This document shows positions 1,006 to 50,771 of a DNA stretch of 64,000 nt, in pieces. A model generated the notes under the pieces. It was not told the DNA's origin. It saw only the letters and a list, made by a program, of their open reading frames with translations, and made no database searches. Made by a program: the position numbers and the translations under genes. This DNA is from a virus: the IMG/VR virus record IMGVR_UViG_3300031418_000004, one strand, 5' to 3'. The first letter of the stretch is position 1. Every line of letters starts with the position of its first letter.

Positions 1006-1767
1006 ATGGAATCTGAAAAAATGGTTCCTAGCTGGTCATTCCCTTGCGACGGCACGATCTCGGAAGTGGAAGAAAGTTGGATGCTTGGCGATATGAGTAA
1101 CGCCGTATCGCCTGTGCGCATGGTGCGCGAAATCCACAAGATTCACCAACATGAGTTTGATTATGGAAACGACGAAGAAATCGATCTCGACGAAAGCGCA
1201 GACGCAATCCAAAAAACTGAGTCGCGTCTCCTTATCAGACCTGAACTTAAAAGACTCCGAAGCCGCGCCAAAGCAAATGATATTGGTGCGGATAACGTAA
1301 TTGATGTTTCAGACGAACAGATCACAACTATCCTCGACTCGGTAGAAGGCAAAGCTGATGGTTTCAGAAATTTACTTTTGAAACGCACTGTGCCACTTCT
1401 TTTGGGCTACGATATTGCGGCGGGTGAATCAGAAGCTGTAGTGCGTGACATTCTCAAAACTGATATTGAAATTGACGATGAGTTGGTTGAATATATTGGT
1501 CGTGTTTCGATAGCGGATATGCTTGCCGAAACATTAAAATCCTGTGAAAACATTCCCGAATCGGTTCGCTCTGACGTGCTCAAAGATTGGTTGATTAAAT
1601 CATTCGACGGCGTACGCACTGAGAAAAGTAACGAGAAGAGTAGAGCAAACAAAAGTAGTTTGCTGCGCAGGATGAAATCTGAGTATGACAACATGAAAGC
1701 CAATGGTGCGCCGATGATCGGAACCTCACGAGGATTATCAGATCGCAATGGCTTCAAAGAAACCTAA
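1006..1767 (+). CDS. hypothetical acidic protein; its position upstream of terL allows a small-terminase role, but no motif supports this
   Basis: Long ORF. This is the first in-frame ATG after the helicase stop; the track start at 901 is a TTG inside the helicase. The 3' end overlaps the terminase start by 20 nt. No recognisable motif. Confidence 0.45.
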   Translation: MESEKMVPSWSFPCDGTISEVEESWMLGDMSNAVSPVRMVREIHKIHQHEFDYGNDEEIDLDESADAIQKTESRLLIRPELKRLRSRAKANDIGADNVIDVSDEQITTILDSVEGKADGFRNLLLKRTVPLLLGYDIAAGESEAVVRDILKTDIEIDDELVEYIGRVSIADMLAETLKSCENIPESVRSDVLKDWLIKSFDGVRTEKSNEKSRANKSSLLRRMKSEYDNMKANGAPMIGTSRGLSDRNGFKET

Positions 1768-4570
1768 AGTCGCATCGGTTCAATTGAAACCGAAACGCAT
1801 ATTAGCTTTCGACTTTCTGGATGAAATTGATGGGCCAGAAGAAAGCGAGGATTTGTCGTTTGTAGAAGACAAGAAAACTGGCGATGTTTCTTTCCTGCAA
1901 GAAGGGGAAGTAAACATTGTCGATCTGGTGGACACGGCTTTGAAAGACAAGTCGCTTGTTCCCCGCGATTTAAAATTTGATGACAGTGCTTGCCCTCAAG
2001 CGAAAAACTTTTTGGAGTGGGTTACTTCTGCGCACTACTTAAAGCAGACGCCGTATCTGGAGCAGGCACTGATCGGCTTGCGTTTGTTTGGTGAAATCTG
2101 TCCTCGTTGCAGTAACATGGATTGGGTGCCAACAGAAGCGCATGAGCCGCAGGAAGGATTAGCAGGCATCAAAAAGAATCTCACAATACTGGAGCATGGC
2201 GCTTGTCCAAAGTGCAAAGCAACACGTAGTGAGTTGATGCACAATAAGGAAATCAATTTCTATAATGAGTTGGCTGTTAACGCAGGACAGCGATGCGTAG
2301 GCGCAAGCACTCCGGTAGTTACTGAGCGCGGTTTACTGCCTATCAGCCATATGTTTATTGGACACGACACGCCGGGTTTTCATCTGCCTCGTTTAAAGAT
2401 GAAAGCAAATACCGGTTCAAAGATGGAACGCGTAAAACAACTTTACGTGAGCTATACCGGAACAACAAAGCGCGTTACTTTGAGCAATGGCATTCACATT
2501 GACGCGACTCCGGATCACCCATTGCGAACTGAAAAAGGTTTCAGGCAAGTAAAGAAACTCACAACCGACGATTATGTTCAGATTTGTTTGGGAACAAATG
2601 TGTGGGGCAAAAAAGTTACTTCTCCTGTTACGATAGAAGAAGCTGGCCTTTCAACCCGCGATGCTGCACTTGAATTTCTCAAACGTAATTCGCTTCCTCT
2701 TGAAAATGATAAACTGGTTTATACGTCTACCTCAGCGAAAGCTCAAATGGCTTGGAGCATTTTGCTTAATGCTGGCTATTACCCTGTTGTTCGAAATAAT
2801 GGGGATGAGTTTTCTGTTTTATATGATCTGGATGCTGAACCTATCGCAAAAAATCTGTTCCTAAAGATTGATGCGATAACAGATCTCGAAGATCAAGTCA
2901 CTTATGATTTGGTGATGGAAGGTATGCCTCAGTTTGTTGCTGGTGGCCTTCTGAACCACAACAGCGGTAAGAGTATCGTTGTTGCAATGTGTTCCACGTA
3001 TCTCACACATATCATCTTAAAGTCGCAGTCTCCTACCGGTATTCTTGGAATCAGTAACACAACCATTCTTCACGGAACGTTTGTAGCACTGACGCAATCA
3101 CAAGCGAAAGATACTTTATGGACACCGTACTTTAACATGATTTCTGATAGTCCGTGGTTTCAGAAATATCATGAAGTGATCCGAAGGCAAGAAAGAAAGT
3201 ACGGCATCGAAGTGATGAAAATCCGTGACACGTTTGTGTTATACGGACACCGTAACTTGATCGTTTATCCTGCCGGGCCGGATGGTCGTATCTTGCGTGG
3301 TCGTACACGTATCTTTGGAGCACTCGATGAGATTGCATACTTTGATAACGACGCCGACAGCAAGAAAGTAAAAGTCAGTGCGGGAATGGTTTACGGCGCA
3401 CTTGACCGAAGTCTTGCAACTGTTCGTGCAGCGGAGAATAAATTGATCGCCGCAGGATATGATCGCGCATTTACGGGATACATGTTTAACGTGAGTAGTC
3501 CTGTTCATGCGCGTGACAAAATCAACGAACTGATGCGCAGTAGTGTTGGCAGTACAAAGCTGTTAGGTGTTCACGCACCAACATGGAAGATGAACCCAAC
3601 AATGCCACGCAACAGTGCCTTTTTGGAAGAAGCGTTTCGACGTGATCCAGTTGGCGCAGCGCGAGACTACGGAGCAGAAGCGCCACTATCTGCAAATCCA
3701 TTTATCACGCAGCCTGTTTTTGTTTCGAAAGCGATTCGTGAGAAAGGCCGCAATATGTGCGTCTATGCTCACAAAGTTATTCGTCACAAAGATGGTTCAC
3801 GCCAGCGTTACGGAACATTAATCAAAGCGGCATCAACAACCACGCCGAGCATTATGGCAATCGACGCAGGCTTTAGTAACAACAGCTTTGCGATGGTGGT
3901 TGGGAGTCGAAACAGTGCAGGTGTTATCAGCGTCGATTGTATTGCTGAGATTATTCCGTTACCGGGCATTCCGTTAAACTACACACTGATTTTCGATGAG
4001 ATATTGATTCCGCTTTGTCAGAAACGAAACGTAAAAGTTTTGCTGGCTGACCAATGGAACAGTATCAAACTTTTGCAGGACGCCAAACTTAAAGGCGGCA
4101 TCGAAATGGCTGATAAATACAGTCTGAAATATCAAGACTTGTGGACAGTCAAAACAATGCTGGAAAGTGAAGTGCCTCGCATTAGTTTACCGCGTATGCA
4201 ACACGCAGAGAAAATTGGTGACACGTTGATGTACGATGGTGAAAACTATCCGTACTGCTTTGAGAACAAGCCAACTGAACACTTGATCATGCAGATTCAA
4301 ACGGTTCAAGATACCGGACGTGCAGTAATTAAAAACATGGGCGCAACGGATGATAGCTGGCGAGCTATGGCGCTTATGGTCTACGGTTTCGAATCGGGCG
4401 AGTATGAAGAGGAATTGAAGGTACGTGAAGAGGTAGTTCACAACCGCGATCCGAACAGATTAGGTATGACGAAAGGCCGACGCAATACAGGCAGTGCAGC
4501 GTCAACAATGTTATCCTCAACTGGTTCCGCTATTGGTAGCGTCAGGACTAGAAGGATAGGGCAAAAATAA
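1748..4570 (+). CDS. terL: terminase large subunit (packaging ATPase/nuclease), intein-containing, with an N-terminal Cys4 zinc-ribbon-like region
   Basis: 940-aa ORF. The Walker A is split as AVNAGQR / SGKS by a 223-aa insert. Walker B-like IFGALDEIAYF lies downstream. CPRC...CPKC is at the N-terminus. A portal-sized gene follows. Confidence 0.85.
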   Translation: MASKKPKVASVQLKPKRILAFDFLDEIDGPEESEDLSFVEDKKTGDVSFLQEGEVNIVDLVDTALKDKSLVPRDLKFDDSACPQAKNFLEWVTSAHYLKQTPYLEQALIGLRLFGEICPRCSNMDWVPTEAHEPQEGLAGIKKNLTILEHGACPKCKATRSELMHNKEINFYNELAVNAGQRCVGASTPVVTERGLLPISHMFIGHDTPGFHLPRLKMKANTGSKMERVKQLYVSYTGTTKRVTLSNGIHIDATPDHPLRTEKGFRQVKKLTTDDYVQICLGTNVWGKKVTSPVTIEEAGLSTRDAALEFLKRNSLPLENDKLVYTSTSAKAQMAWSILLNAGYYPVVRNNGDEFSVLYDLDAEPIAKNLFLKIDAITDLEDQVTYDLVMEGMPQFVAGGLLNHNSGKSIVVAMCSTYLTHIILKSQSPTGILGISNTTILHGTFVALTQSQAKDTLWTPYFNMISDSPWFQKYHEVIRRQERKYGIEVMKIRDTFVLYGHRNLIVYPAGPDGRILRGRTRIFGALDEIAYFDNDADSKKVKVSAGMVYGALDRSLATVRAAENKLIAAGYDRAFTGYMFNVSSPVHARDKINELMRSSVGSTKLLGVHAPTWKMNPTMPRNSAFLEEAFRRDPVGAARDYGAEAPLSANPFITQPVFVSKAIREKGRNMCVYAHKVIRHKDGSRQRYGTLIKAASTTTPSIMAIDAGFSNNSFAMVVGSRNSAGVISVDCIAEIIPLPGIPLNYTLIFDEILIPLCQKRNVKVLLADQWNSIKLLQDAKLKGGIEMADKYSLKYQDLWTVKTMLESEVPRISLPRMQHAEKIGDTLMYDGENYPYCFENKPTEHLIMQIQTVQDTGRAVIKNMGATDDSWRAMALMVYGFESGEYEEELKVREEVVHNRDPNRLGMTKGRRNTGSAASTMLSSTGSAIGSVRTRRIGQK
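2294..2962 (+). mobile_element. intein (223 aa) inserted in the terminase P-loop
   Basis: Starts at Cys183 (CVGASTPVVTERG, block A). Contains TPDHPL (block B, TxxH). Ends VAGGLLNHN, followed by Ser406. Excision restores AGQRSGKS, which fits [AG]x4GK[ST]. Confidence 0.8.
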
Positions 4571-23003: not shown

Positions 23004-23029
23004 AGGGATAGAGAAACTTCTATCCCTTT
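23004..23029 (+). terminator. hairpin terminator with a short U-tract
   Basis: GGGATAGA-GAAACT-TCTATCCC followed by TTT, then the SD GGAG. Confidence 0.5.
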
Positions 23030-23039
23030 GGAGATTGTG

Positions 23040-23426
23040 ATGCCTGATGCTCAGTTGAGTTTCAGAGAAGTTACGGACACAGAACTTTTGATAGAGTTTC
23101 GCACTCATAGCGAACTGCAAAAGTTCGACGATGCTCGGACTCTTTCTATGTTCTGTAAAGTATATGGAGCATACGTTGATAACAACTTTGCCGGATACAT
23201 TGCGATAGACGGCGCACAGCGTGAACTTTCAAGTCTCTTTGTTTTGTCTTATTACAGAAACTTAGGAATAGCCAATCAGTTGTTGGAAAGATATTCTTCT
23301 GTTGCTGATTACGTTTGCTGCTATGAGGACAACACAGTAGCATTCGCGTTGTACCAAAAACATGGCTTCACCGAAAAACATAAAACTTATCATTCGCACA
23401 CATATACTACGTTGAGAAAACCCTGA
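23040..23426 (+). CDS. GNAT family N-acetyltransferase
   Basis: LFVLSYYRNLGIANQLLERY (motif A, R/Q-x-x-G-x-A) and FALYQKHGF (motif B). Confidence 0.7.
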   Translation: MPDAQLSFREVTDTELLIEFRTHSELQKFDDARTLSMFCKVYGAYVDNNFAGYIAIDGAQRELSSLFVLSYYRNLGIANQLLERYSSVADYVCCYEDNTVAFALYQKHGFTEKHKTYHSHTYTTLRKP

Positions 23427-25695: not shown

Positions 25696-25759
25696 GATCA
25701 TAACCCTAGTGCTATCGTTCAAAAGTTCGATAGCCTACTTCCAATAAAAGGAACGAGAA

Positions 25760-26452
25760 ATGAAATCTAAAACTCTGCAAAAAGCAAACGAAGCTGTAGC
25801 AAAAGCAACTCCCGAAACTTTCGGTGCAGCAATTTCCACTGCTAAAGTGAAGGTTGCTAAACACAAAGAGCATACCAGCTATAGCAGCGCATTTGCTATT
25901 GGCGAACACGCTGAATTACGTTTGGACTTCTTTGATAAAGAGGAACCATTCGGACGCGTTGAAGCCGTGCAGTTTTCTACCGAAGGCATTACGTGCAATG
26001 TTGCAATGGCGATCAGCGCAAGCAATGACGATGTTACCGTGCGTGAGTTTCACAGCGCAACGCCATTGCAAAACGTTGACCAGCGTCTGTTGAAATATTT
26101 CCGACACACGGGAATTGATAACCCGCTTCAAAATTCCTTCCCTGTTTTACCGGGTACGCATATTCAGGTTGGCGATCTGGTTAAGCTGGACTTTAGTTCC
26201 GAAATCGAAAACTACAATCCGTTTGCGATTCCTGTTTTGATTTGGGGCGTAACTTATTTCGAAGGGCGCGTTCGCTATCACGTAAGTCTGGACTGCGATC
26301 AGTATCGCGGTACGTCTGCTTTCGATACCATTTATGAGCGCTACGTGAAGCATTCTATCGACTGTGTTGATGCGGCATTTATTCAGCCAATCGGCGGTTG
26401 GGAAGAAGTGGAAGTAGACGCGCCTGTTCTGAACAAACTGGAGAGACAATGA
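25760..26452 (+). CDS. hypothetical protein, apparent paralog of 18090-18836 with the same duplicated module
   Basis: FAIGEHAELRL...FGRVEAVQF...ITCNVAMAI and IQVGDLVKLDF...IWGVTYF...VRYHVSL. Confidence 0.6.
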   Translation: MKSKTLQKANEAVAKATPETFGAAISTAKVKVAKHKEHTSYSSAFAIGEHAELRLDFFDKEEPFGRVEAVQFSTEGITCNVAMAISASNDDVTVREFHSATPLQNVDQRLLKYFRHTGIDNPLQNSFPVLPGTHIQVGDLVKLDFSSEIENYNPFAIPVLIWGVTYFEGRVRYHVSLDCDQYRGTSAFDTIYERYVKHSIDCVDAAFIQPIGGWEEVEVDAPVLNKLERQ

Positions 26453-26814
26453 AAAAGAATCTGATTCAAAGCAATCTTGATTTCGGTTCCGCGTGGAACA
26501 AACTTATTTCTGGTGACGCTACCAAACATAAGTACGTGCTTTCACGCACAGGATGGAACGGCGCTAATCAGTACGTGCGTGTAATTTTCCCGCAGGCACC
26601 ACATCCGAGTGATGCACCTGATGCTGTTCCGCAGAATCCGTATTTCCGCATGGCAGACAACAACGCCGACGCAGACGGAACGTTATCACCATTCGCAGTT
26701 TTGAAAACTACGCAAAACAAAGTTTTCCCGTGGACTCCTTCACAGGGCGATCTGTTTGCGTTCGATTTTGAAATTTACGAACTGGTGAGCGAAGATGCCG
26801 AACAAGATGCCTGA
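26449..26814 (+). CDS. DUF2829-family protein (the family that includes the Thoeris anti-defence sponge Tad2)
   Basis: LDFGSAWNKLISGD...LSRTGWNGANQYVRV...FAVLKTTQNKVFPWTPSQGDLFAFDFEIYE matches the DUF2829 pattern (dF..Al..lk.G..v.R.gW......i...........pW.ps..DllA.DWei). Confidence 0.6.
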   Translation: MKKNLIQSNLDFGSAWNKLISGDATKHKYVLSRTGWNGANQYVRVIFPQAPHPSDAPDAVPQNPYFRMADNNADADGTLSPFAVLKTTQNKVFPWTPSQGDLFAFDFEIYELVSEDAEQDA

Positions 26815-27181
26815 ATACGATCCAGTTAATCATAAAGCGTCTGACTTTGTTGCAGTCTTTCGCTTTAACTATCTGGAAATGTTGGCGACAGGCCCGGAAA
26901 ATGGTGGCCTGTTTGTTGTGTTGAAACGTTCCGAACCTGAAAGCGTAACGCGTGATCGAATCCTCGAAGTGTGCAAAAAGATTTTTCCTGCTGGTGATGC
27001 TAAGCACGTTGTGTATGGCTATGACTATCTGGTAATGAAAGCACAAATCGACGGCGCGGATATTCTTTTGATGCCCGGAACACTGTTGGCAATCCGCAGA
27101 GACAACAAAGCTGCTGTGATTATTGCAGACGGGCCATTGCCTGATGTTGATATTCACAAAGGCAAGTTGCTCATTGGCTAA
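26795..27181 (+). CDS. hypothetical protein
   Basis: 128 aa with protein-like composition. Confidence 0.55.
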   Translation: MPNKMPEYDPVNHKASDFVAVFRFNYLEMLATGPENGGLFVVLKRSEPESVTRDRILEVCKKIFPAGDAKHVVYGYDYLVMKAQIDGADILLMPGTLLAIRRDNKAAVIIADGPLPDVDIHKGKLLIG

Positions 27182-27190
27182 GGAAGTTTT

Positions 27191-27658
27191 ATGGGCGCGT
27201 TGAAGAAGCGTCTTTTCTGTACGCATGAAAACTGGAATCGCTTTCGAACCATTCATGGTGACGAAGCAAACTACGCTCGAAGTGAGTGGCGTTGTGCCAA
27301 TTGCGACAAACATAAATACAGCGGCTACAGCGACAAGATGGAAAGTGTGCCACAAGGCAAGAAGCGCATTGCTTCTTTTCTGAAATCGGTTCGCTATTTT
27401 ATCGGTCGCATCGCATATCATTGTCTGAACCAGCAAGACAAAGATCGTATTTATCGTGAGTATCGCTTTCAGCAAGAAGTTCGCACTCTGGAACATTGGA
27501 TGTGTGAGTTTCCGCAAATGGCAGAAGCTGCGCGTTATCTCAGAGTTCACGTTAATGGCTATTCCGAAACTTTACCGGCAGGTCACGCAGATCGCCGTGC
27601 GGCGCAGGACATAGGCAGTTTCCGTGAAGACTGTAGACGTAGATTTCCAAAACTGTAA
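27191..27658 (+). CDS. hypothetical Cys/His-containing protein
   Basis: SD AAGGAAG. 155 aa. CTHE...CANC. Confidence 0.6.
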   Translation: MGALKKRLFCTHENWNRFRTIHGDEANYARSEWRCANCDKHKYSGYSDKMESVPQGKKRIASFLKSVRYFIGRIAYHCLNQQDKDRIYREYRFQQEVRTLEHWMCEFPQMAEAARYLRVHVNGYSETLPAGHADRRAAQDIGSFREDCRRRFPKL

Positions 27659-27663
27659 ATAAT

Positions 27664-27702
27664 AAATAGGCTACAGGCTATTCCGGCTTGTGGCCTATTT
27701 TC
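27664..27702 (+). terminator. rho-independent terminator, a near-duplicate of the element at 13746
   Basis: AAATAGGC TACAGGC-TATTCCG-GCTTGTG GCCTATTT forms about 15 pairs including G:U pairs. TTT follows. Confidence 0.7.
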
Positions 27703-27718
27703 ACATAAGGAGGAAATT

Positions 27719-28297
27719 TTGGAACGAAACGTAGCAGAGTTTGGGTACTTTGAAGATTTCATGCAACATGCTTTCCCACTTGGAATTGAAATCAAAAACG
27801 TGCCTGTTGAAACTCTGTCATGTTTAATGAAACACGTAACTTTGCGTCAGGCTTACTTGATGCCCTATTACGGTTTTGAAGTTGAAAGCCGTATTATCGC
27901 AGACGACAACGGTCGATGGCTTCGTGCTTTTGTTAACGGTGACATGGTTCCTGAAATTTCACCAGACTTGATCGAGAAGTTGAAGAATCCTCAAATGCAG
28001 TATCAGGCAGCGGCAGGTTTCTTAACTATGCAGGCAGCGATTCACAAAAAGATTCGCACTCATCTGTTTGATGATATGCTTGTTTATGGCGAAACCAAAT
28101 CAGGCTATATGGAATTCTGGATGCACAAATCAGGTTCCGGTTCGCTGCTACATGTTGCTCATGCAGATCAATCGTTCGAAAGTTTTACTAACGAGCGCGT
28201 TGCAGATTGGCAGTCACGTATGCCTTTTGCTGCTACTGAATATCCGGATGAGCTTTTTCAAGTTGCAATAACTCCAAACGTAAAAGTCGAATGGTAA
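27719..28297 (+). CDS. hypothetical protein (TTG start)
   Basis: AAGGAGG lies 5 nt upstream of TTG 27719. 192 aa. Confidence 0.55.
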   Translation: MERNVAEFGYFEDFMQHAFPLGIEIKNVPVETLSCLMKHVTLRQAYLMPYYGFEVESRIIADDNGRWLRAFVNGDMVPEISPDLIEKLKNPQMQYQAAAGFLTMQAAIHKKIRTHLFDDMLVYGETKSGYMEFWMHKSGSGSLLHVAHADQSFESFTNERVADWQSRMPFAATEYPDELFQVAITPNVKVEW

Positions 28298-28671
28298 AAT
28301 TCAAAGTTTGTCGTAATGGCTGTACTCGAACTGTTATTTTGATCGGTAAATATGCTATCAAGATTCCTTGTCTTCATTATAACTATCCAATGTTTATCGA
28401 GGGTATCCGCGCTAATCTGAATGAACGTCAGTATATTTGCTTTCAAGATAAAGCACCCATTGCGAAAACGTTTTATGCGAATCGCTTTGGACTCTTGAAC
28501 ATTCAAGAACGTGTGCGCCCGGTAAATAACCGTGGCCTGTTCTTTACTGAGCTTGAAGTGCTTTGTTCTAAGCAGCACCTACCGCGTGATTTTTATATGG
28601 ACGATCCCAAACCGGAAAACTTCGGATACAACTCACGCAACGTTTTAGTCAAACTGGATTACGGCAACTAA
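28291..28671 (+). CDS. minimal protein-kinase-like protein (126 aa)
   Basis: These occur in kinase order: YAIKIP (VAIK-like Lys), NLNERQ (alpha-C Glu?), DDPKPENFGY (D-x-K-x-x-N catalytic loop) and VKLDYGN (DFG-like). The ORF ends right after the DFG-like motif. Confidence 0.4.
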   Translation: MVKFKVCRNGCTRTVILIGKYAIKIPCLHYNYPMFIEGIRANLNERQYICFQDKAPIAKTFYANRFGLLNIQERVRPVNNRGLFFTELEVLCSKQHLPRDFYMDDPKPENFGYNSRNVLVKLDYGN

Positions 28672-29807: not shown

Positions 29808-30042
29808 AGTTGTTCTGGAAGCAAAACGCGAAGGCGAAGTTTTCCAGATCGTTCGTTACCGTGTACGCCGTGCGAATGATTGGGTATCCCATAAAATCCC
29901 CATGAACAAACGTGAAGTTGTTCCGTCTGCAAAGTTTCAGGACTTTCAACGTTGGGCCTACACTGACAACGGCGAAACAGTTTCAATTCCTCTTAGCGTC
30001 AAACTAAACTATCTGGTGGCACATGAAAGCAATCAGCATTAA
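29800..30042 (+). CDS. hypothetical protein
   Basis: ATG 29800 overlaps the lipoprotein 3' end. 80 aa. Confidence 0.5.
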   Translation: MSKVVLEAKREGEVFQIVRYRVRRANDWVSHKIPMNKREVVPSAKFQDFQRWAYTDNGETVSIPLSVKLNYLVAHESNQH

Positions 30043-30418
30043 ACAACCTTTTGCTTGGCTGTTGGCGAACGGACACAAGGATGTTGAAAATCGAAACTGG
30101 CGCACAAAGTTTCGCGGTAAGATTTTTATTCACGCAAGCAAGTCAATCAACAAACAAGATTATGCTGCTGCGAAACTTATCTGTGATGATTTGGGAATAA
30201 AACTTCCAAACATTGACCAGCTTGAGCGCGGCGGTATTGTTGGCTGTATGACTATCACGGACTGCGTTGAAACCCTTGATAGTCCGTGGTTTTTCGGGCA
30301 ATACGGATTTACTGTAAAGGATCAACGTGCTTGCAAATTACACCCACTCAAAGGACGCCTGAGTATCTACGAATCTGGCGTTGAAACTTCCGAACTATCT
30401 TGGAGAAGAAAGAAATGA
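30023..30418 (+). CDS. ASCH domain protein
   Basis: MKAISIKQPFAWLLANGHKDVENRNWRTKFRGKIFIHASK is the typical ASCH N-terminus. Confidence 0.8.
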   Translation: MKAISIKQPFAWLLANGHKDVENRNWRTKFRGKIFIHASKSINKQDYAAAKLICDDLGIKLPNIDQLERGGIVGCMTITDCVETLDSPWFFGQYGFTVKDQRACKLHPLKGRLSIYESGVETSELSWRRKK

Positions 30419-31910: not shown

Positions 31911-32226
31911 ATTAGTAAAATTCGATTTTCCGGTTTACGGGCCGCTGGAAATCGCACGAAAGAAACTGCTTGAGCATCTTGTTGTTGAGTGTCGCAAAGG
32001 TCTGCAAGATTCTCTGGTCGGTTTTATTTACGGCGCTCAACTGGAAGACGGTAGCCATGTTCACGTTTGTTGCAGCAAGTATTACAATAATCATCGTGAC
32101 GTGGAATTTGCACGAATTCAACCGAAAGGAGGCCCATATTTGAAACCTTACCGATGCGCGGCAAACCTTGTGCTAACCATGACAGCAAAAGCTGACGGAA
32201 CAGTTAGCTGCACCGGGCAGGATTAA
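31900..32226 (+). CDS. hypothetical protein
   Basis: SD GAGGAA. 108 aa. Confidence 0.5.
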   Translation: MQVELVKFDFPVYGPLEIARKKLLEHLVVECRKGLQDSLVGFIYGAQLEDGSHVHVCCSKYYNNHRDVEFARIQPKGGPYLKPYRCAANLVLTMTAKADGTVSCTGQD

Positions 32227-32588
32227 TGTTTCTTGCTTTTCGACGCACCGAAGTTGTGAGCATGAGGAACGGCAATAAAAACTTCGATGTTCGAATAGAT
32301 CGCCAAAGCAAATGGGGCAACCGTCATTTTATGAAGGAAGAAACCGTTGCTGAACGTGATCGAGTTTGCGACGAACACAAAAAGGAATTGTGGGAAAAGA
32401 TCCACGCAAGCGATATAACTCTAAGCGAACTTGAAGAGTTGTATGGTAAAAAGTTAGGCTGCTGGTGTAAACCGAAACGCTGTCACGGTGACGCACTGGC
32501 AGAAGCGGCAGAGTGGGCGCATCGTTTGATGAACATTCTGAGAAAGCTAAGAAAGAAACGTAGAAAAAAGTGTAAAGTAAAATCGTAA
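32226..32588 (+). CDS. DUF4326 domain protein with polybasic tail
   Basis: IDRQSKWGNRHF ... GCWCKPKRCHGDAL is the hallmark pattern. Tail: RKLRKKRRKKCKVKS. The start may instead be ATG 32262. Confidence 0.7.
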   Translation: MFLAFRRTEVVSMRNGNKNFDVRIDRQSKWGNRHFMKEETVAERDRVCDEHKKELWEKIHASDITLSELEELYGKKLGCWCKPKRCHGDALAEAAEWAHRLMNILRKLRKKRRKKCKVKS

Positions 32589-32605: not shown

Positions 32606-33175
32606 ATGGAAATTCAGGAAGCTGATCTTTACCAGAAAGCAATTGAGTTTGCAGCACGGGCGCATCGTGGACAGTATCGCAAATATACGAATGAGCCTTA
32701 TATTCTGCATCCGATCAACGTTGCCGAAATTCTTCGCGATCTGGATATGCCAATCGAAACAATCGTTGCTGGCGTACTGCATGACGTGGTTGAAGATACC
32801 GACTGCACCATTCAGGAAATCGAAGACTCGTTCGGTAAAGTTGTCGCAGAGATCGTTAACGGCGTAACCAACGTGGCAGAAGATAAATCTGTTCCACGTA
32901 AAGAACGCTTCTGGCAAAACGTGCAGCATCTGACTAAATCAAATGAGCAGGCGCAGAACGTTAAGTGTGCTGACATTATCAGTAACATGAAAAAGTTCGG
33001 TGAAGTGAATCCTGATTTCGCAGCGCAGTACACGGCAGAAAAAATGATTGTTATCGATCATTTGTATGAAGCAGATTCGTTTCTGATTCTTCGCGCTAAA
33101 CAGGCAGTCGAAGCAAATATGGAAGGGATTCGCTCGGAGCACATGCACTTGCGTTTCCTGCTCGAAAAAGGCTAA
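32606..33175 (+). CDS. HD-domain (p)ppGpp hydrolase-like protein (SpoT/Mesh1 hydrolase-domain type)
   Basis: AARAHRGQYRKYTNEPYILHPINVAEIL and AGVLHDVVEDTDCTIQEIEDSFG (HD...ED signature). Confidence 0.8.
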   Translation: MEIQEADLYQKAIEFAARAHRGQYRKYTNEPYILHPINVAEILRDLDMPIETIVAGVLHDVVEDTDCTIQEIEDSFGKVVAEIVNGVTNVAEDKSVPRKERFWQNVQHLTKSNEQAQNVKCADIISNMKKFGEVNPDFAAQYTAEKMIVIDHLYEADSFLILRAKQAVEANMEGIRSEHMHLRFLLEKG

Positions 33176-48590: not shown

Positions 48591-50771
48591 TTACCAAGCA
48601 CTATCAAGCTGCGCCTGAGTAAACGGAGCTTTCTTCGTGTTGACCGCAGAAGTAGAATCCAGAATACCCATCCCAATATAGGCAACGAATACACGGCCTG
48701 AACTCATTGTAACTTTTGCGCTTACTGCGAACGTGTAGTTGTTACCGCCCAGCGAAACAACAGCAACACTTGAATCGAGAATTACGTTTGCACGTAAGCC
48801 ATCGAAAGAAGGTGCGATTGTAACTTTGGAAGTATCAACCTTGTCACGGTTTTGCGTGTTATGCACAACGTTCCATTCAACTTTGGAAATTGTTTCATCC
48901 GCAGCGAATTTGTTTGCAGCAAGACCGGCAGTAGTATGCAGAACGTTACCCGATGGATCACACAGAGACACACCGTGAGTTTCGCCCGGCTTAACCCAAG
49001 TCTGCACAACTTTCATTGATGCAGAATAAGAGGTATCATCGCGACGGCCCGCAGTTAACATCGGAGTCAGATCCGGCAGGTTGTAGTTCAGCGTTACAAC
49101 TTCGGTTGAACTATCCTGTTTGGTAATTGTTGCAGTAACAGTACCAGCAGCAGGCAGAGTAGGAGTTCCAGAAGTTTTGTATGCAGTGATAACAAAACTT
49201 TTGATAGTTGGATTCTTCCAGTTACCAAACTGAGCACTAACATCTGCACCTGACCAATCAACAGATTTAACAGTTGAAGGATCTTTAGCAACAAGCAGGA
49301 ACGTAATGCTTGCGGTTGAATCTTGCTGGTTCAGACCATAGAACAGTTCATAGTCCGGCTGAACAGGAGTAGTGCCGCCGCCATTACCGCCAGTTTCAGG
49401 AGCAACATATTTGTTTGCACCAGTAACAAACACGATAACAACTTTCATCGCTTCCGGCAGATCGATAGTCAGATTGTTTTCGTCAGTCAGAGTAACTTCG
49501 CTAGGCATGATCTGTTTGCCGTCTGCGTCGTAAACTGTAACTGTACCAAAACGAATACCTGCGTTGTGTGCAAACGTGTAGCTGGTTTCCGCAGTAACAT
49601 CGTTGCCTGTCATATCCAGAACGTACGCCTGCGAACCGTTACCGCTTGCGTTATCCAGAACAAACTTACGAGTTGCAACAGCGCCGTCAACTTCCTGAAC
49701 ATCGCCAGTAAGAATAAGGCTTGCAACTTCACCGCCGTCTGCGTCGATAAAACCAGCCGCTTTAACAGCAGTAGTATCAAGTTCGATTGCGCTTGAAGTT
49801 GTGTTGCGTTTCAGGCCAGTGCCAAATGCAGCAGAAGCAAGCTGAGCAAAACCGACGCCGCCATCAGCAACTTTAACGCCATCAGCAGACAGTGCCAGAC
49901 TTGCGCCATTCAGTTTCAGACTAACGCCATCAGCGCCAACAGAAACGCCGCCAGCAGCATCAACTTTAACTGAAAGTTCGTTGCCATTCAGATTCAGACC
50001 TGCGCCATTTGTTACGCTTGCCATACCGCCAAACACAGACCATGAAGTGCCGTTGTAACGAACGTACTGTTTGGTTGCGTGGTTCCAAGCAATCGCGCCA
50101 TCAGCACGATCCGCAGCAGGATCAAAAACAATTACGAAAGCGCTGTCTTTGTACTGCACGATTGCGTTGTTCGCAACAGATGCGATGGTTCCGAAATCTG
50201 CGTGAAGATTTGCAACGTCAGTCAGAACATAACGCTTACCAGAAACTTTTTCCGGCTGCATTGTTGCATCAGTCTGAACGCCATCAACATCTTCTTGCCA
50301 GTTCATACCAGCCAGTGCGTTTTCAATATCGATCTTACGCGCTGCATCAGTACCGTTAACAGGCGCTGCCAGATTTGAAATACCAAAACCGCCAGCAGAA
50401 AGATCCGCAGTCAGTGCGCCAGAAGCAACAGTCAGTTTTTTCGCAAGCTGAGTATCAACGTGACCTTTACTTACCGCTGCTTTAGAATCCGCAGCAGACT
50501 GATCATCAGAACTCAGTTCCAGCGCAGCAGTCATCGCAACAGAGCCATCAGCTTTTACCAGACCAGAAAGATCTGGAGCTTCACCGCCGCCGTTCAGAGC
50601 AATGATTGATGAACCATTGAAGTATTTATAAACTTTGTCTGTGGTGTTATACCACATGACGGCTTCTTGTGCGGCAACAAGTGAGGCCAGTGAAGGATCG
50701 GATGCAAGCTGCTCACCACGAAGGTTTGCGATTACTGCACCAGTCATTAACTTAATATTGCCAACTTTCAT
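48591..50771 (-). CDS. tail fibre protein
   Basis: 726 aa. The N-terminal part carries fibre-typical phrases: KADGSVAMTAALEL, AAVSKGHVDTQL and GTDAARKIDIENAL. Gly/Ala/Val repeats such as GLNLNGNELSVKVDAAGGVSVGADGVSLKLNGASLALSADGVKV. Thr/Val-rich, beta-rich distal part. Confidence 0.7.
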   Translation of the reverse strand: MKVGNIKLMTGAVIANLRGEQLASDPSLASLVAAQEAVMWYNTTDKVYKYFNGSSIIALNGGGEAPDLSGLVKADGSVAMTAALELSSDDQSAADSKAAVSKGHVDTQLAKKLTVASGALTADLSAGGFGISNLAAPVNGTDAARKIDIENALAGMNWQEDVDGVQTDATMQPEKVSGKRYVLTDVANLHADFGTIASVANNAIVQYKDSAFVIVFDPAADRADGAIAWNHATKQYVRYNGTSWSVFGGMASVTNGAGLNLNGNELSVKVDAAGGVSVGADGVSLKLNGASLALSADGVKVADGGVGFAQLASAAFGTGLKRNTTSSAIELDTTAVKAAGFIDADGGEVASLILTGDVQEVDGAVATRKFVLDNASGNGSQAYVLDMTGNDVTAETSYTFAHNAGIRFGTVTVYDADGKQIMPSEVTLTDENNLTIDLPEAMKVVIVFVTGANKYVAPETGGNGGGTTPVQPDYELFYGLNQQDSTASITFLLVAKDPSTVKSVDWSGADVSAQFGNWKNPTIKSFVITAYKTSGTPTLPAAGTVTATITKQDSSTEVVTLNYNLPDLTPMLTAGRRDDTSYSASMKVVQTWVKPGETHGVSLCDPSGNVLHTTAGLAANKFAADETISKVEWNVVHNTQNRDKVDTSKVTIAPSFDGLRANVILDSSVAVVSLGGNNYTFAVSAKVTMSSGRVFVAYIGMGILDSTSAVNTKKAPFTQAQLDSAW

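Follow-up and report, generated by a model that had tools for sequence, protein, structure and literature searches.

Does the jumbo phage represented by a 64,000-nucleotide (nt) stretch of viral DNA (IMG/VR record IMGVR_UViG_3300031418_000004, the whole of which is hereafter called the window) encode a sponge for the nucleotide signals of bacterial immunity, and if so, which signal would that sponge capture? The question is raised by a 121-amino-acid (aa) open reading frame (ORF) at positions 26449 to 26814 of the plus strand, which an initial annotation had described as a DUF2829 (Tad2-family) protein and hence as a candidate sponge. The ORF and the N- and C-terminal strings quoted for it are exactly present in the window, and the description has gained support from a Pfam match, from sequence matches to Tad2 proteins of solved structure, from the fold of a predicted model and from the retention of the residues that contact the ligand. 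By analogy with characterized members of the family, we consider it likely that this protein would act as a homotetrameric sponge, the canonical pocket of which, at the interface of protomers, would sequester an adenosine diphosphate ribose (ADPR)-derived signal made by the TIR proteins of Thoeris defence systems.

Results

Membership of the Tad2 fold family

The Pfam family PF11195 (Tad2-like, formerly DUF2829) matches the 121-aa product over profile positions 9 to 72 of 73 with an E-value of 2e-13 and a score of 51.1 bits, far past chance level (the gathering cut-off of the family is 25 bits). Two DUF2829-containing PHROG families, phrog_872 and phrog_1048, also match. When the protein was compared with PDB sequences using phmmer, the best match was ModTad2 (9EIB, E 2.4e-5), with the Myroides Tad2 entry 8V3E also matched; SPO1 Tad2 was found at E 1.8e-4 (8SME; about 2e-4 for 8SME and 8WJE) and AcrIIA7/HgmTad2 weakly, at E 0.05 to 0.08 (0.046 for AcrIIA7). 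The same solved Tad2 proteins were recovered with a profile of the close subfamily. We gathered 100 representative homologues, 66 of which were aligned and used for the residue counts given below. The window contains a single DUF2829 copy according to a six-frame hmmsearch with the family profile.

The predicted structure leads to the same family. The AlphaFold2 model has a mean pLDDT (predicted local distance difference test) of 85.5 and a pTM (predicted template modelling score) of 0.77, with helices at residues 12–21 and 99–103 and strands at residues 28–33, 42–46, 82–86, 92–94 and 107–113. It thus displays the N-terminal helix, the antiparallel beta-sheet and the short helix between the last strands that characterize the Tad2 fold, to which it adds an N-terminal strand (residues 2–10) and a disordered acidic C-terminal tail. 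The structural comparison that the initial annotation had proposed turned out in its favour: the 24 PDB chains retrieved by Foldseek at E<1e-3 are all Tad2 proteins (SPO1, SptTad2, ModTad2 and HgmTad2; best E about 1e-5), and the next match has an E-value of 0.5. Likewise, VIA Z scores are 9.4 for SptTad2, the top match, 9.0 for both SPO1 Tad2 and ModTad2 and 8.3 to 8.5 for HgmTad2, while the first unrelated chain scores 4.0. As far as computation on sequence and modelled structure reaches, the window protein is a member of the Tad2 fold family.

The window protein was also compared with individual Tad2 proteins. SPO1 Tad2 (Gp34.65; PDB 8SME/8SMF/8SMG/8WJE), the founding member of PF11195, superposes with a root-mean-square deviation (rmsd) of 2.8 Å over 86 residues (Foldseek E 1.1e-5; TM 0.75 by target) and has in common with it the GWNG and W-x-P-S-Q-x-D motifs. 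The two proteins are only about 25–30% identical, however, and SPO1 Tad2 has an insert of 24 aa compared to 35 aa here, and differs from the window protein by the extra predicted N-terminal strand and the acidic C-terminal tail of the latter. ModTad2 (also MoTad2; 8V3E, 9EIB), from a Myroides odoratus prophage, binds His-ADPR and the cyclic mononucleotides cUMP and cCMP. It superposes with an rmsd of 1.9 Å (36% identity over 72 aligned residues) and shares the W-T-P-S motif, but has a serine at the position of T78 of SPO1 Tad2 and a shorter insert (45 residues from the glycine of GWNG to the tryptophan of the second motif, compared to 56). ModTad2 does not inhibit type I Thoeris. Finally, HgmTad2 (= AcrIIA7; 8KBI–8KBM, 8WJC, 9KZR) and SptTad2 (8WJD) are long-insert proteins that bind glyco-cyclic ADPR (gcADPR) as well as the cyclic dinucleotides cGG and 3'3'-cGAMP. 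The window protein belongs with HgmTad2 to the long-insert class (41 aa in HgmTad2, 35 aa here), and the insert motif of HgmTad2 and SptTad2, an aromatic-x-x-aromatic segment followed by (A/D)NN, is partly shared. In contrast, the beta3–beta4 hairpin and the helices alpha2 and alpha3 of HgmTad2 are not predicted in its insert.

Conservation of the ligand pocket

In SPO1 Tad2, gcADPR is gripped by W25, N26, W73 and D79, T78 touches the adenine, and waters are coordinated by S76, H71 and D67 (10.1101/2023.05.01.538930). The W21A/N22A and S90A/T92A/D93A mutants of HgmTad2 lose binding (10.1101/2023.11.15.567273). We determined the equivalent residues of the window protein from sequence and profile alignments to the solved Tad2 proteins. 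The five residues W25, N26, W73, S76 and D79 correspond to W36, N37, W95, S98 and D101, so that every main contact of the gcADPR pocket is retained. W36, W95 and D101 are invariant among the 66 aligned homologues, N37 is kept in 64 and S98 in 60.

Other positions differ: T78 is replaced by G100, H71 by F93 and D67 by Q89. We considered G100 as a possible defect of the pocket and rejected this idea because glycine is the commonest residue at that position (28 of the 66 homologues, followed by threonine with 23) and is also found there in Tad2 no. 68, an active Thoeris inhibitor (Table S2, Hadary et al.). Further on, F107 takes the place of the family-typical tryptophan of the D-W motif, a substitution seen in 3 of the 66 homologues.

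A predicted sponge for a Thoeris signal

On the model of SPO1 Tad2, ModTad2 and HgmTad2, two V-shaped dimers of the single-domain protein would join into a homotetramer, with two identical pockets at the interfaces where protomers of different dimers meet. W36 and N37 of the beta1–beta2 loop would line each of these pockets together with W95, S98 and D101 of the loop and short helix that precede the last strand. These pockets would sequester the product of a Thoeris TIR protein, that is 3'cADPR (1''–3' gcADPR) or possibly His-ADPR or N7-cADPR; with the signal captured, the Thoeris effector would never be switched on and infection would proceed. We infer the tetramer, the binding of the ligand, the type of Thoeris targeted and the timing of expression from these characterized relatives.

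The record of the family lends weight to this proposal. By our count from Table S2 of Hadary et al., 9 of the 11 assayed Tad2 proteins that carry both GWNG and W-x-[PA]-[ST]-x-x-D inhibit at least one Thoeris type. Most Tad2 homologues assayed earlier inhibit type I Thoeris, and about 1% of Tad2 proteins were judged non-functional for gcADPR binding (Li et al., 10.1101/2023.11.15.567273). Several observations nevertheless weigh against a Thoeris signal as the ligand. The positions occupied by Q89, F93 and G100, which are second-shell or water-coordinating in SPO1 Tad2, all differ from it. Some homologues whose pocket looks canonical, such as Tad2 no. 78, failed to inhibit any of seven systems, as did 19 of the 84 sponge homologues overall (Hadary et al.). 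Moreover, the supplementary tables of the same study, including part of Table S1, were searched for the motifs of the present subfamily, and these were found in none of the 18 Tad2 proteins assayed. Lastly, Tad2 specificity is scattered over the tree, between Thoeris types I, II and IV, CBASS (cyclic-oligonucleotide-based antiphage signalling system) and Pycsar (pyrimidine cyclase system for antiphage resistance), and the exact ligand is therefore not readable from homology.

A conserved insert of the long class

The initial annotation had described an unusually long insert of about 40 aa between the two conserved halves of the protein. In the model, the insert lies between strand beta2 and the strand at residues 82–86 and is somewhat shorter, with 35 aa. 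Nor is its length unusual: the spacing between G38 and W95 is 56 residues here and ranges from 41 to 71 across the 66 homologues. The corresponding spacings, counted from the sequences of Table S2, are 45 residues in SPO1 Tad2 and ModTad2, 53 in Tad2_70 and 63 in HgmTad2. Judging from its sequence, the insert thus falls in the long class (35–41 aa after beta2; 10.1101/2023.11.15.567273) and is not exceptional for the family. DSSP assigns no secondary-structure element to residues 47–81, which are modelled with a pLDDT of 88 to 92 by blocks of 10 residues.

What sets this insert apart is its conservation. In a 15-sequence subfamily, 14 of 34 insert positions are invariant, and the mean majority fraction is 0.81 in the insert, 0.83–0.88 in the core segments and 0.60 at the N-terminus, which indicates that in this alignment the insert is conserved to the same degree as the core. 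The pattern APHP...NPYF...DNN...GT recurs, with a variable linker, in homologues of 39–52% identity (P0019, P0021–P0023, P0031 and P0050). Using hhalign, the insert aligns over 68 columns, with 35% identity, to that of Tad2_70, a homologue scored as active against both Pycsar systems as well as type I Thoeris (Table S2, Hadary et al.). Part of the insert, DNNADADG, resembles a DxDxDG/EF-hand calcium site; we rejected this reading, as position 74 varies in the subfamily and the matches to repeat proteins are compositional. These matches are multi-stretch phmmer matches of the insert to a 958-aa secreted repeat protein (P0020) and a 993-aa EF-hand repeat protein (P0038), and they reflect the D/N/G-rich composition of DNNADADGT and not homology.

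In HgmTad2, SptTad2 and SaTad2, long inserts of 35–41 aa form an additional pocket that accepts cyclic dinucleotides, and mutating R31, S47, F70 and N85 of HgmTad2 abolishes binding of cGG and cGAMP (10.1101/2023.11.15.567273). In a profile alignment to 9kzr (whose numbering is that of HgmTad2 plus 47), these four residues correspond to F47, P61, L79 and F93 of the window protein. The neighbouring pairs P32/P48 and W87/W95 fix the equivalences of R31 and N85, while those of S47 and F70, in the middle of the insert, are less certain. At the residue level, a cyclic-dinucleotide pocket of the HgmTad2 type was rejected, since its contact residues are replaced. The suggestion that the insert may alter ligand specificity is in agreement with the published work on HgmTad2 and SptTad2, by analogy with which it may still hold.

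Alternative explanations

The conserved insert leads to an extension of the Thoeris proposal, in which the canonical pocket for the ADPR-derived signal would be joined by an insert-built pocket within each V-shaped dimer. This second pocket would hold a cyclic nucleotide (a CBASS dinucleotide, cCMP or cUMP of Pycsar, or another signal), so that two kinds of signalling immunity would be blocked at once. The insert falls in the length range of those through which HgmTad2, SptTad2 and SaTad2 bind cGG and 3'3'-cGAMP, the cUMP site of MoTad2 was placed at the same A–C interface (Hadary et al.), the motif of the insert is kept in distant homologues, and Tad2_70, with which it aligns, is active against both Thoeris and Pycsar. 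However, both R31 and N85 of HgmTad2 have become phenylalanines, the other two contact residues have changed as well, and the modelled insert has neither the beta-hairpin nor the helices seen in HgmTad2. A conservation on par with that of the core would be explained equally well by a role of the insert in dimer packing. From the sequence and the model, a second pocket, if present, would be of a design other than that of HgmTad2. We regard a two-pocket sponge as a tentative proposal, with the odds against it.

It is also conceivable, if rather unlikely, that the protein is a Tad2-fold sponge for an as yet undiscovered signal, distinct from all characterized Thoeris, CBASS and Pycsar molecules. 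About a quarter of the tested homologues, the 19 of 84 mentioned above, were negative in seven systems, for which the authors themselves propose undiscovered signals (Hadary et al.), and the inactivity of the canonical-looking Tad2 no. 78 points the same way. As far as their available tables go, the published screens did not sample the jumbo-phage subfamily either. On the other hand, the window protein has kept all five main contacts of the ADPR pocket, and the majority of assayed homologues with such pockets inhibit a Thoeris type, which favours capture of a Thoeris signal. A role that does not involve sequestration, such as that of an anti-CRISPR, appears very improbable. This idea originates from AcrIIA7 (= HgmTad2), a DUF2829 protein first reported as a Cas9 inhibitor, whose name PDB entries 9kzr and 8kbi keep; yet neither in vitro nor in vivo could HgmTad2 or its homologues be shown again to inhibit Cas9 (Li et al., 10.1101/2023.11.15.567273). 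The match of the window protein to AcrIIA7 is moreover weak, as given above. Enterobacterales, to which the hosts of related phages belong, are not known as typical carriers of type II-A CRISPR systems, which also counts against an AcrIIA7-like function. Sequestration of a Thoeris signal in the canonical pocket is the explanation that we consider most likely.

Jumbo-phage setting and relatives

The window has a uniform G+C content (43–47%) and long co-directional gene arrays. Its phage origin is borne out by a 725-aa structural protein and by the local gene order, both of which match Dickeya jumbo phages JA11, JA13, JA29 and JA33 (Salmondvirus, about 255 kb) and Erwinia phage Yoloswag; the structural protein is 67% identical to its counterparts in the Dickeya phages and 49% to that of Yoloswag. 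A megablast search with the 5 kb around the Tad2-like gene against 50,697 phage records gave no match, and relatives are found at the protein level. Based on these comparisons, the window comes from a jumbo phage related to JA11 and JA29 that belongs to a different species or genus, because no phage record was matched by megablast.

The gene for the 725-aa protein lies on the minus strand (48591–50771). Its residues 1–455 account for the 67% identity to the virion structural protein of JA11 and JA33, which some records name 'T1SS secreted agglutinin RTX', and its C-terminal third is without a match, as expected of a host-specific tip.

The closest named relatives of the Tad2-like protein are gp044 of Dickeya phage vB_DsoM_JA11 (YP_009813489) and its orthologues in JA13, JA29 and JA33, which are 67–68% identical to it, equal in length, encoded at a collinear position and also provided with the conserved insert. 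They are listed as hypothetical proteins in GenBank, and the source name for JA29 reads 'Thoeris anti-defense 2-lik...'. The four genes between 25760 and 27658 are collinear in JA11, in JA29 and in a 256-kb IMG/VR jumbo contig, and within this block the Tad2-like gene shows the highest conservation, with 62–68% identity compared to 21–61% for the collinear neighbours in these three genomes.

Two close relatives of the subfamily with 59–60% identity, P0017 (260 aa) and P0018 (334 aa), are fused at their C-terminus to a domain related to crAss001_48 (PF21825, E about 1e-14), an arrangement not known to us from earlier descriptions. Seven members of the subfamily (P0006–P0009, P0011, P0012 and P0015) are called with N-terminal extensions of 20–100 aa that hold an LLPHQ-like string. 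Most of these extended members stem from short contigs, and they have the usual Met-x-Lys start at an internal position. From their sequences, the extensions are probably mis-called starts, the alternative being a real fusion.

The genes on either side of the block (Table 1), together with a thymidylate synthase gene upstream of it, give the locus the look of an accessory or host-takeover region, a setting in which a sponge that acts early in infection would fit. A 126-aa ORF at 28291–28671 (plus strand) matches phrog_4301 (E 2.4e-27, profile positions 38–167 of 225). JA11 has no counterpart of it at the same place, which gives this ORF the appearance of having been inserted in the collinear block. 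Elsewhere in the window, a 940-aa ORF at 1748–4570 (plus strand) may be an intein-interrupted gene, as its residues 228–405 match PF14890, the intein splicing domain, albeit below the threshold (30 bits, compared to a cut-off of 35.8).

Table 1. Features of the Tad2-like locus and its surroundings in the window
Feature	Position	Strand	Details
GNAT acetyltransferase	23028–23426	+	E 1.5e-9
Weaker hairpin upstream of the block	25707–25737	+	-14.5 kcal/mol, z -3.1, no U tract
Upstream gene of the four-gene block, 230 aa	25760–26452	+	No Pfam or PHROG match; collinear homologues 44–51% identical (JA11, JA29, IMG/VR contig)
GGAG ribosome-binding site, 5-nt spacer and ATG	26440–26451	+	Read from the sequence
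Tad2-like (DUF2829) gene	26449–26814	+	121 aa (P0001); Pfam, PDB-sequence, AlphaFold, Foldseek and VIA matches; predicted immune-signal sponge
GWNG motif (G35 W36 N37 G38), beta1–beta2 loop	26551–26562	+	W36/N37 equivalent to the gcADPR-contacting W25/N26 of SPO1 Tad2
Insert, residues 47–81 (35 aa), proline-rich	26587–26691	+	Motif APHP..DA.P.NPYF...DNN..A.GT; AlphaFold/DSSP and subfamily alignment
C-terminal pocket motif FPWTPSQGDLFAFDF, residues 93–107	26725–26769	+	Alignments to solved Tad2 proteins
Downstream gene, 128 aa	26795–27181	+	Weak phrog_34691 match; 35–36% identity to collinear homologues
Last gene of the block, 155 aa, Cys/His-rich N-terminus	27191–27658	+	phrog_3036, E 8.5e-6 on residues 4–51; 49–61% identity to collinear homologues
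Terminator-like hairpin downstream of the block	27664–27700	+	-23.2 kcal/mol, z -5.1, 0 of 200 shuffles fold as well, U-rich 3' side
ASCH domain protein	30023–30418	+	E 1.5e-5
DUF4326 protein	32226–32588	+	E 3.5e-21
HD_4 SpoT-hydrolase-like domain protein	32606–33175	+	E 3.2e-23

Neighbouring genes and transcription signals

The GGAG Shine-Dalgarno sequence of the Tad2-like gene (26440–26443) precedes an ATG that overlaps the TGA stop of the upstream gene as ATGA, and this overlap suggests that the two genes are translationally coupled. At its other end, the Tad2-like gene is overlapped over 20 nt by the start of the 128-aa gene. No Pfam family was found for the products of the three neighbours, and their PHROG matches are weak and lead to families without an assigned function. 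For the 128-aa protein, the ESM Atlas returned clusters of about 110 aa labelled as isocitrate-lyase family (PF00463), some of them viral, with a similarity of 0.94 (213 of 256 features, 30 of 30 matches). We rejected this label, as neither the window protein nor its JA11 orthologue gave a Pfam match even at E 10, and the lead is unconfirmed. The ESM Atlas gave nothing useful for the 155-aa protein. On sequence grounds, the three neighbours are lineage-restricted hypothetical proteins. They are not ORFans in the strict sense that the initial annotation implied, having collinear homologues in JA11, JA29 and one IMG/VR jumbo contig. Beyond their position, we found no evidence for its further suggestion that they could be additional anti-defence genes: no family was matched, and the ESM Atlas lead is weak. 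A 280-aa ORF on the minus strand (26708–27550) lies opposite three genes of the plus strand for which related phages have conserved counterparts, and is most likely a shadow ORF.

The block had also been described as a terminator-bounded unit, a view that holds better on its downstream side, where a strong hairpin is present, than on its upstream side, where the hairpin is weaker and has no U tract. A consensus scan detected no terminator in either of the gaps flanking the block. Consensus sigma-70-like sites are rarer than in shuffled sequence (7 compared to 14.7), and for this reason we did not assign a promoter.

Discussion

With 2,783 non-redundant Tad2 homologues already present in IMG/VR, the window protein is a further member of a known and very common family and adds little by itself. 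What goes beyond the ordinary is its conserved long insert alone, in a clade that is absent from the published functional screens as far as their available tables show. The insert may mark a Tad2 clade of jumbo phages and distant homologues in which a second pocket of new design, different from the hairpin pocket of HgmTad2, would make a two-signal sponge for Thoeris and for a cyclic nucleotide or an as yet uncharacterized immune signal, although we hold this to be a possibility with rather less than even chances. If it were true, a single protein would counter Thoeris together with cyclic-nucleotide or other signalling immunity through a new pocket design.

Sponges have repeatedly been used to capture and identify new immune signals. 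Given this use, and since the clade was left unsampled by the screens, a purified member would be a cheap means to ask if a pocket of the insert takes up a molecule, be it known or new. Our analysis also provides a functional label for a gene listed as hypothetical in Dickeya Salmondvirus phages, which are considered for the biocontrol of potato soft rot, and suggests that this lineage of jumbo phages meets TIR-based signalling immunity in its hosts.

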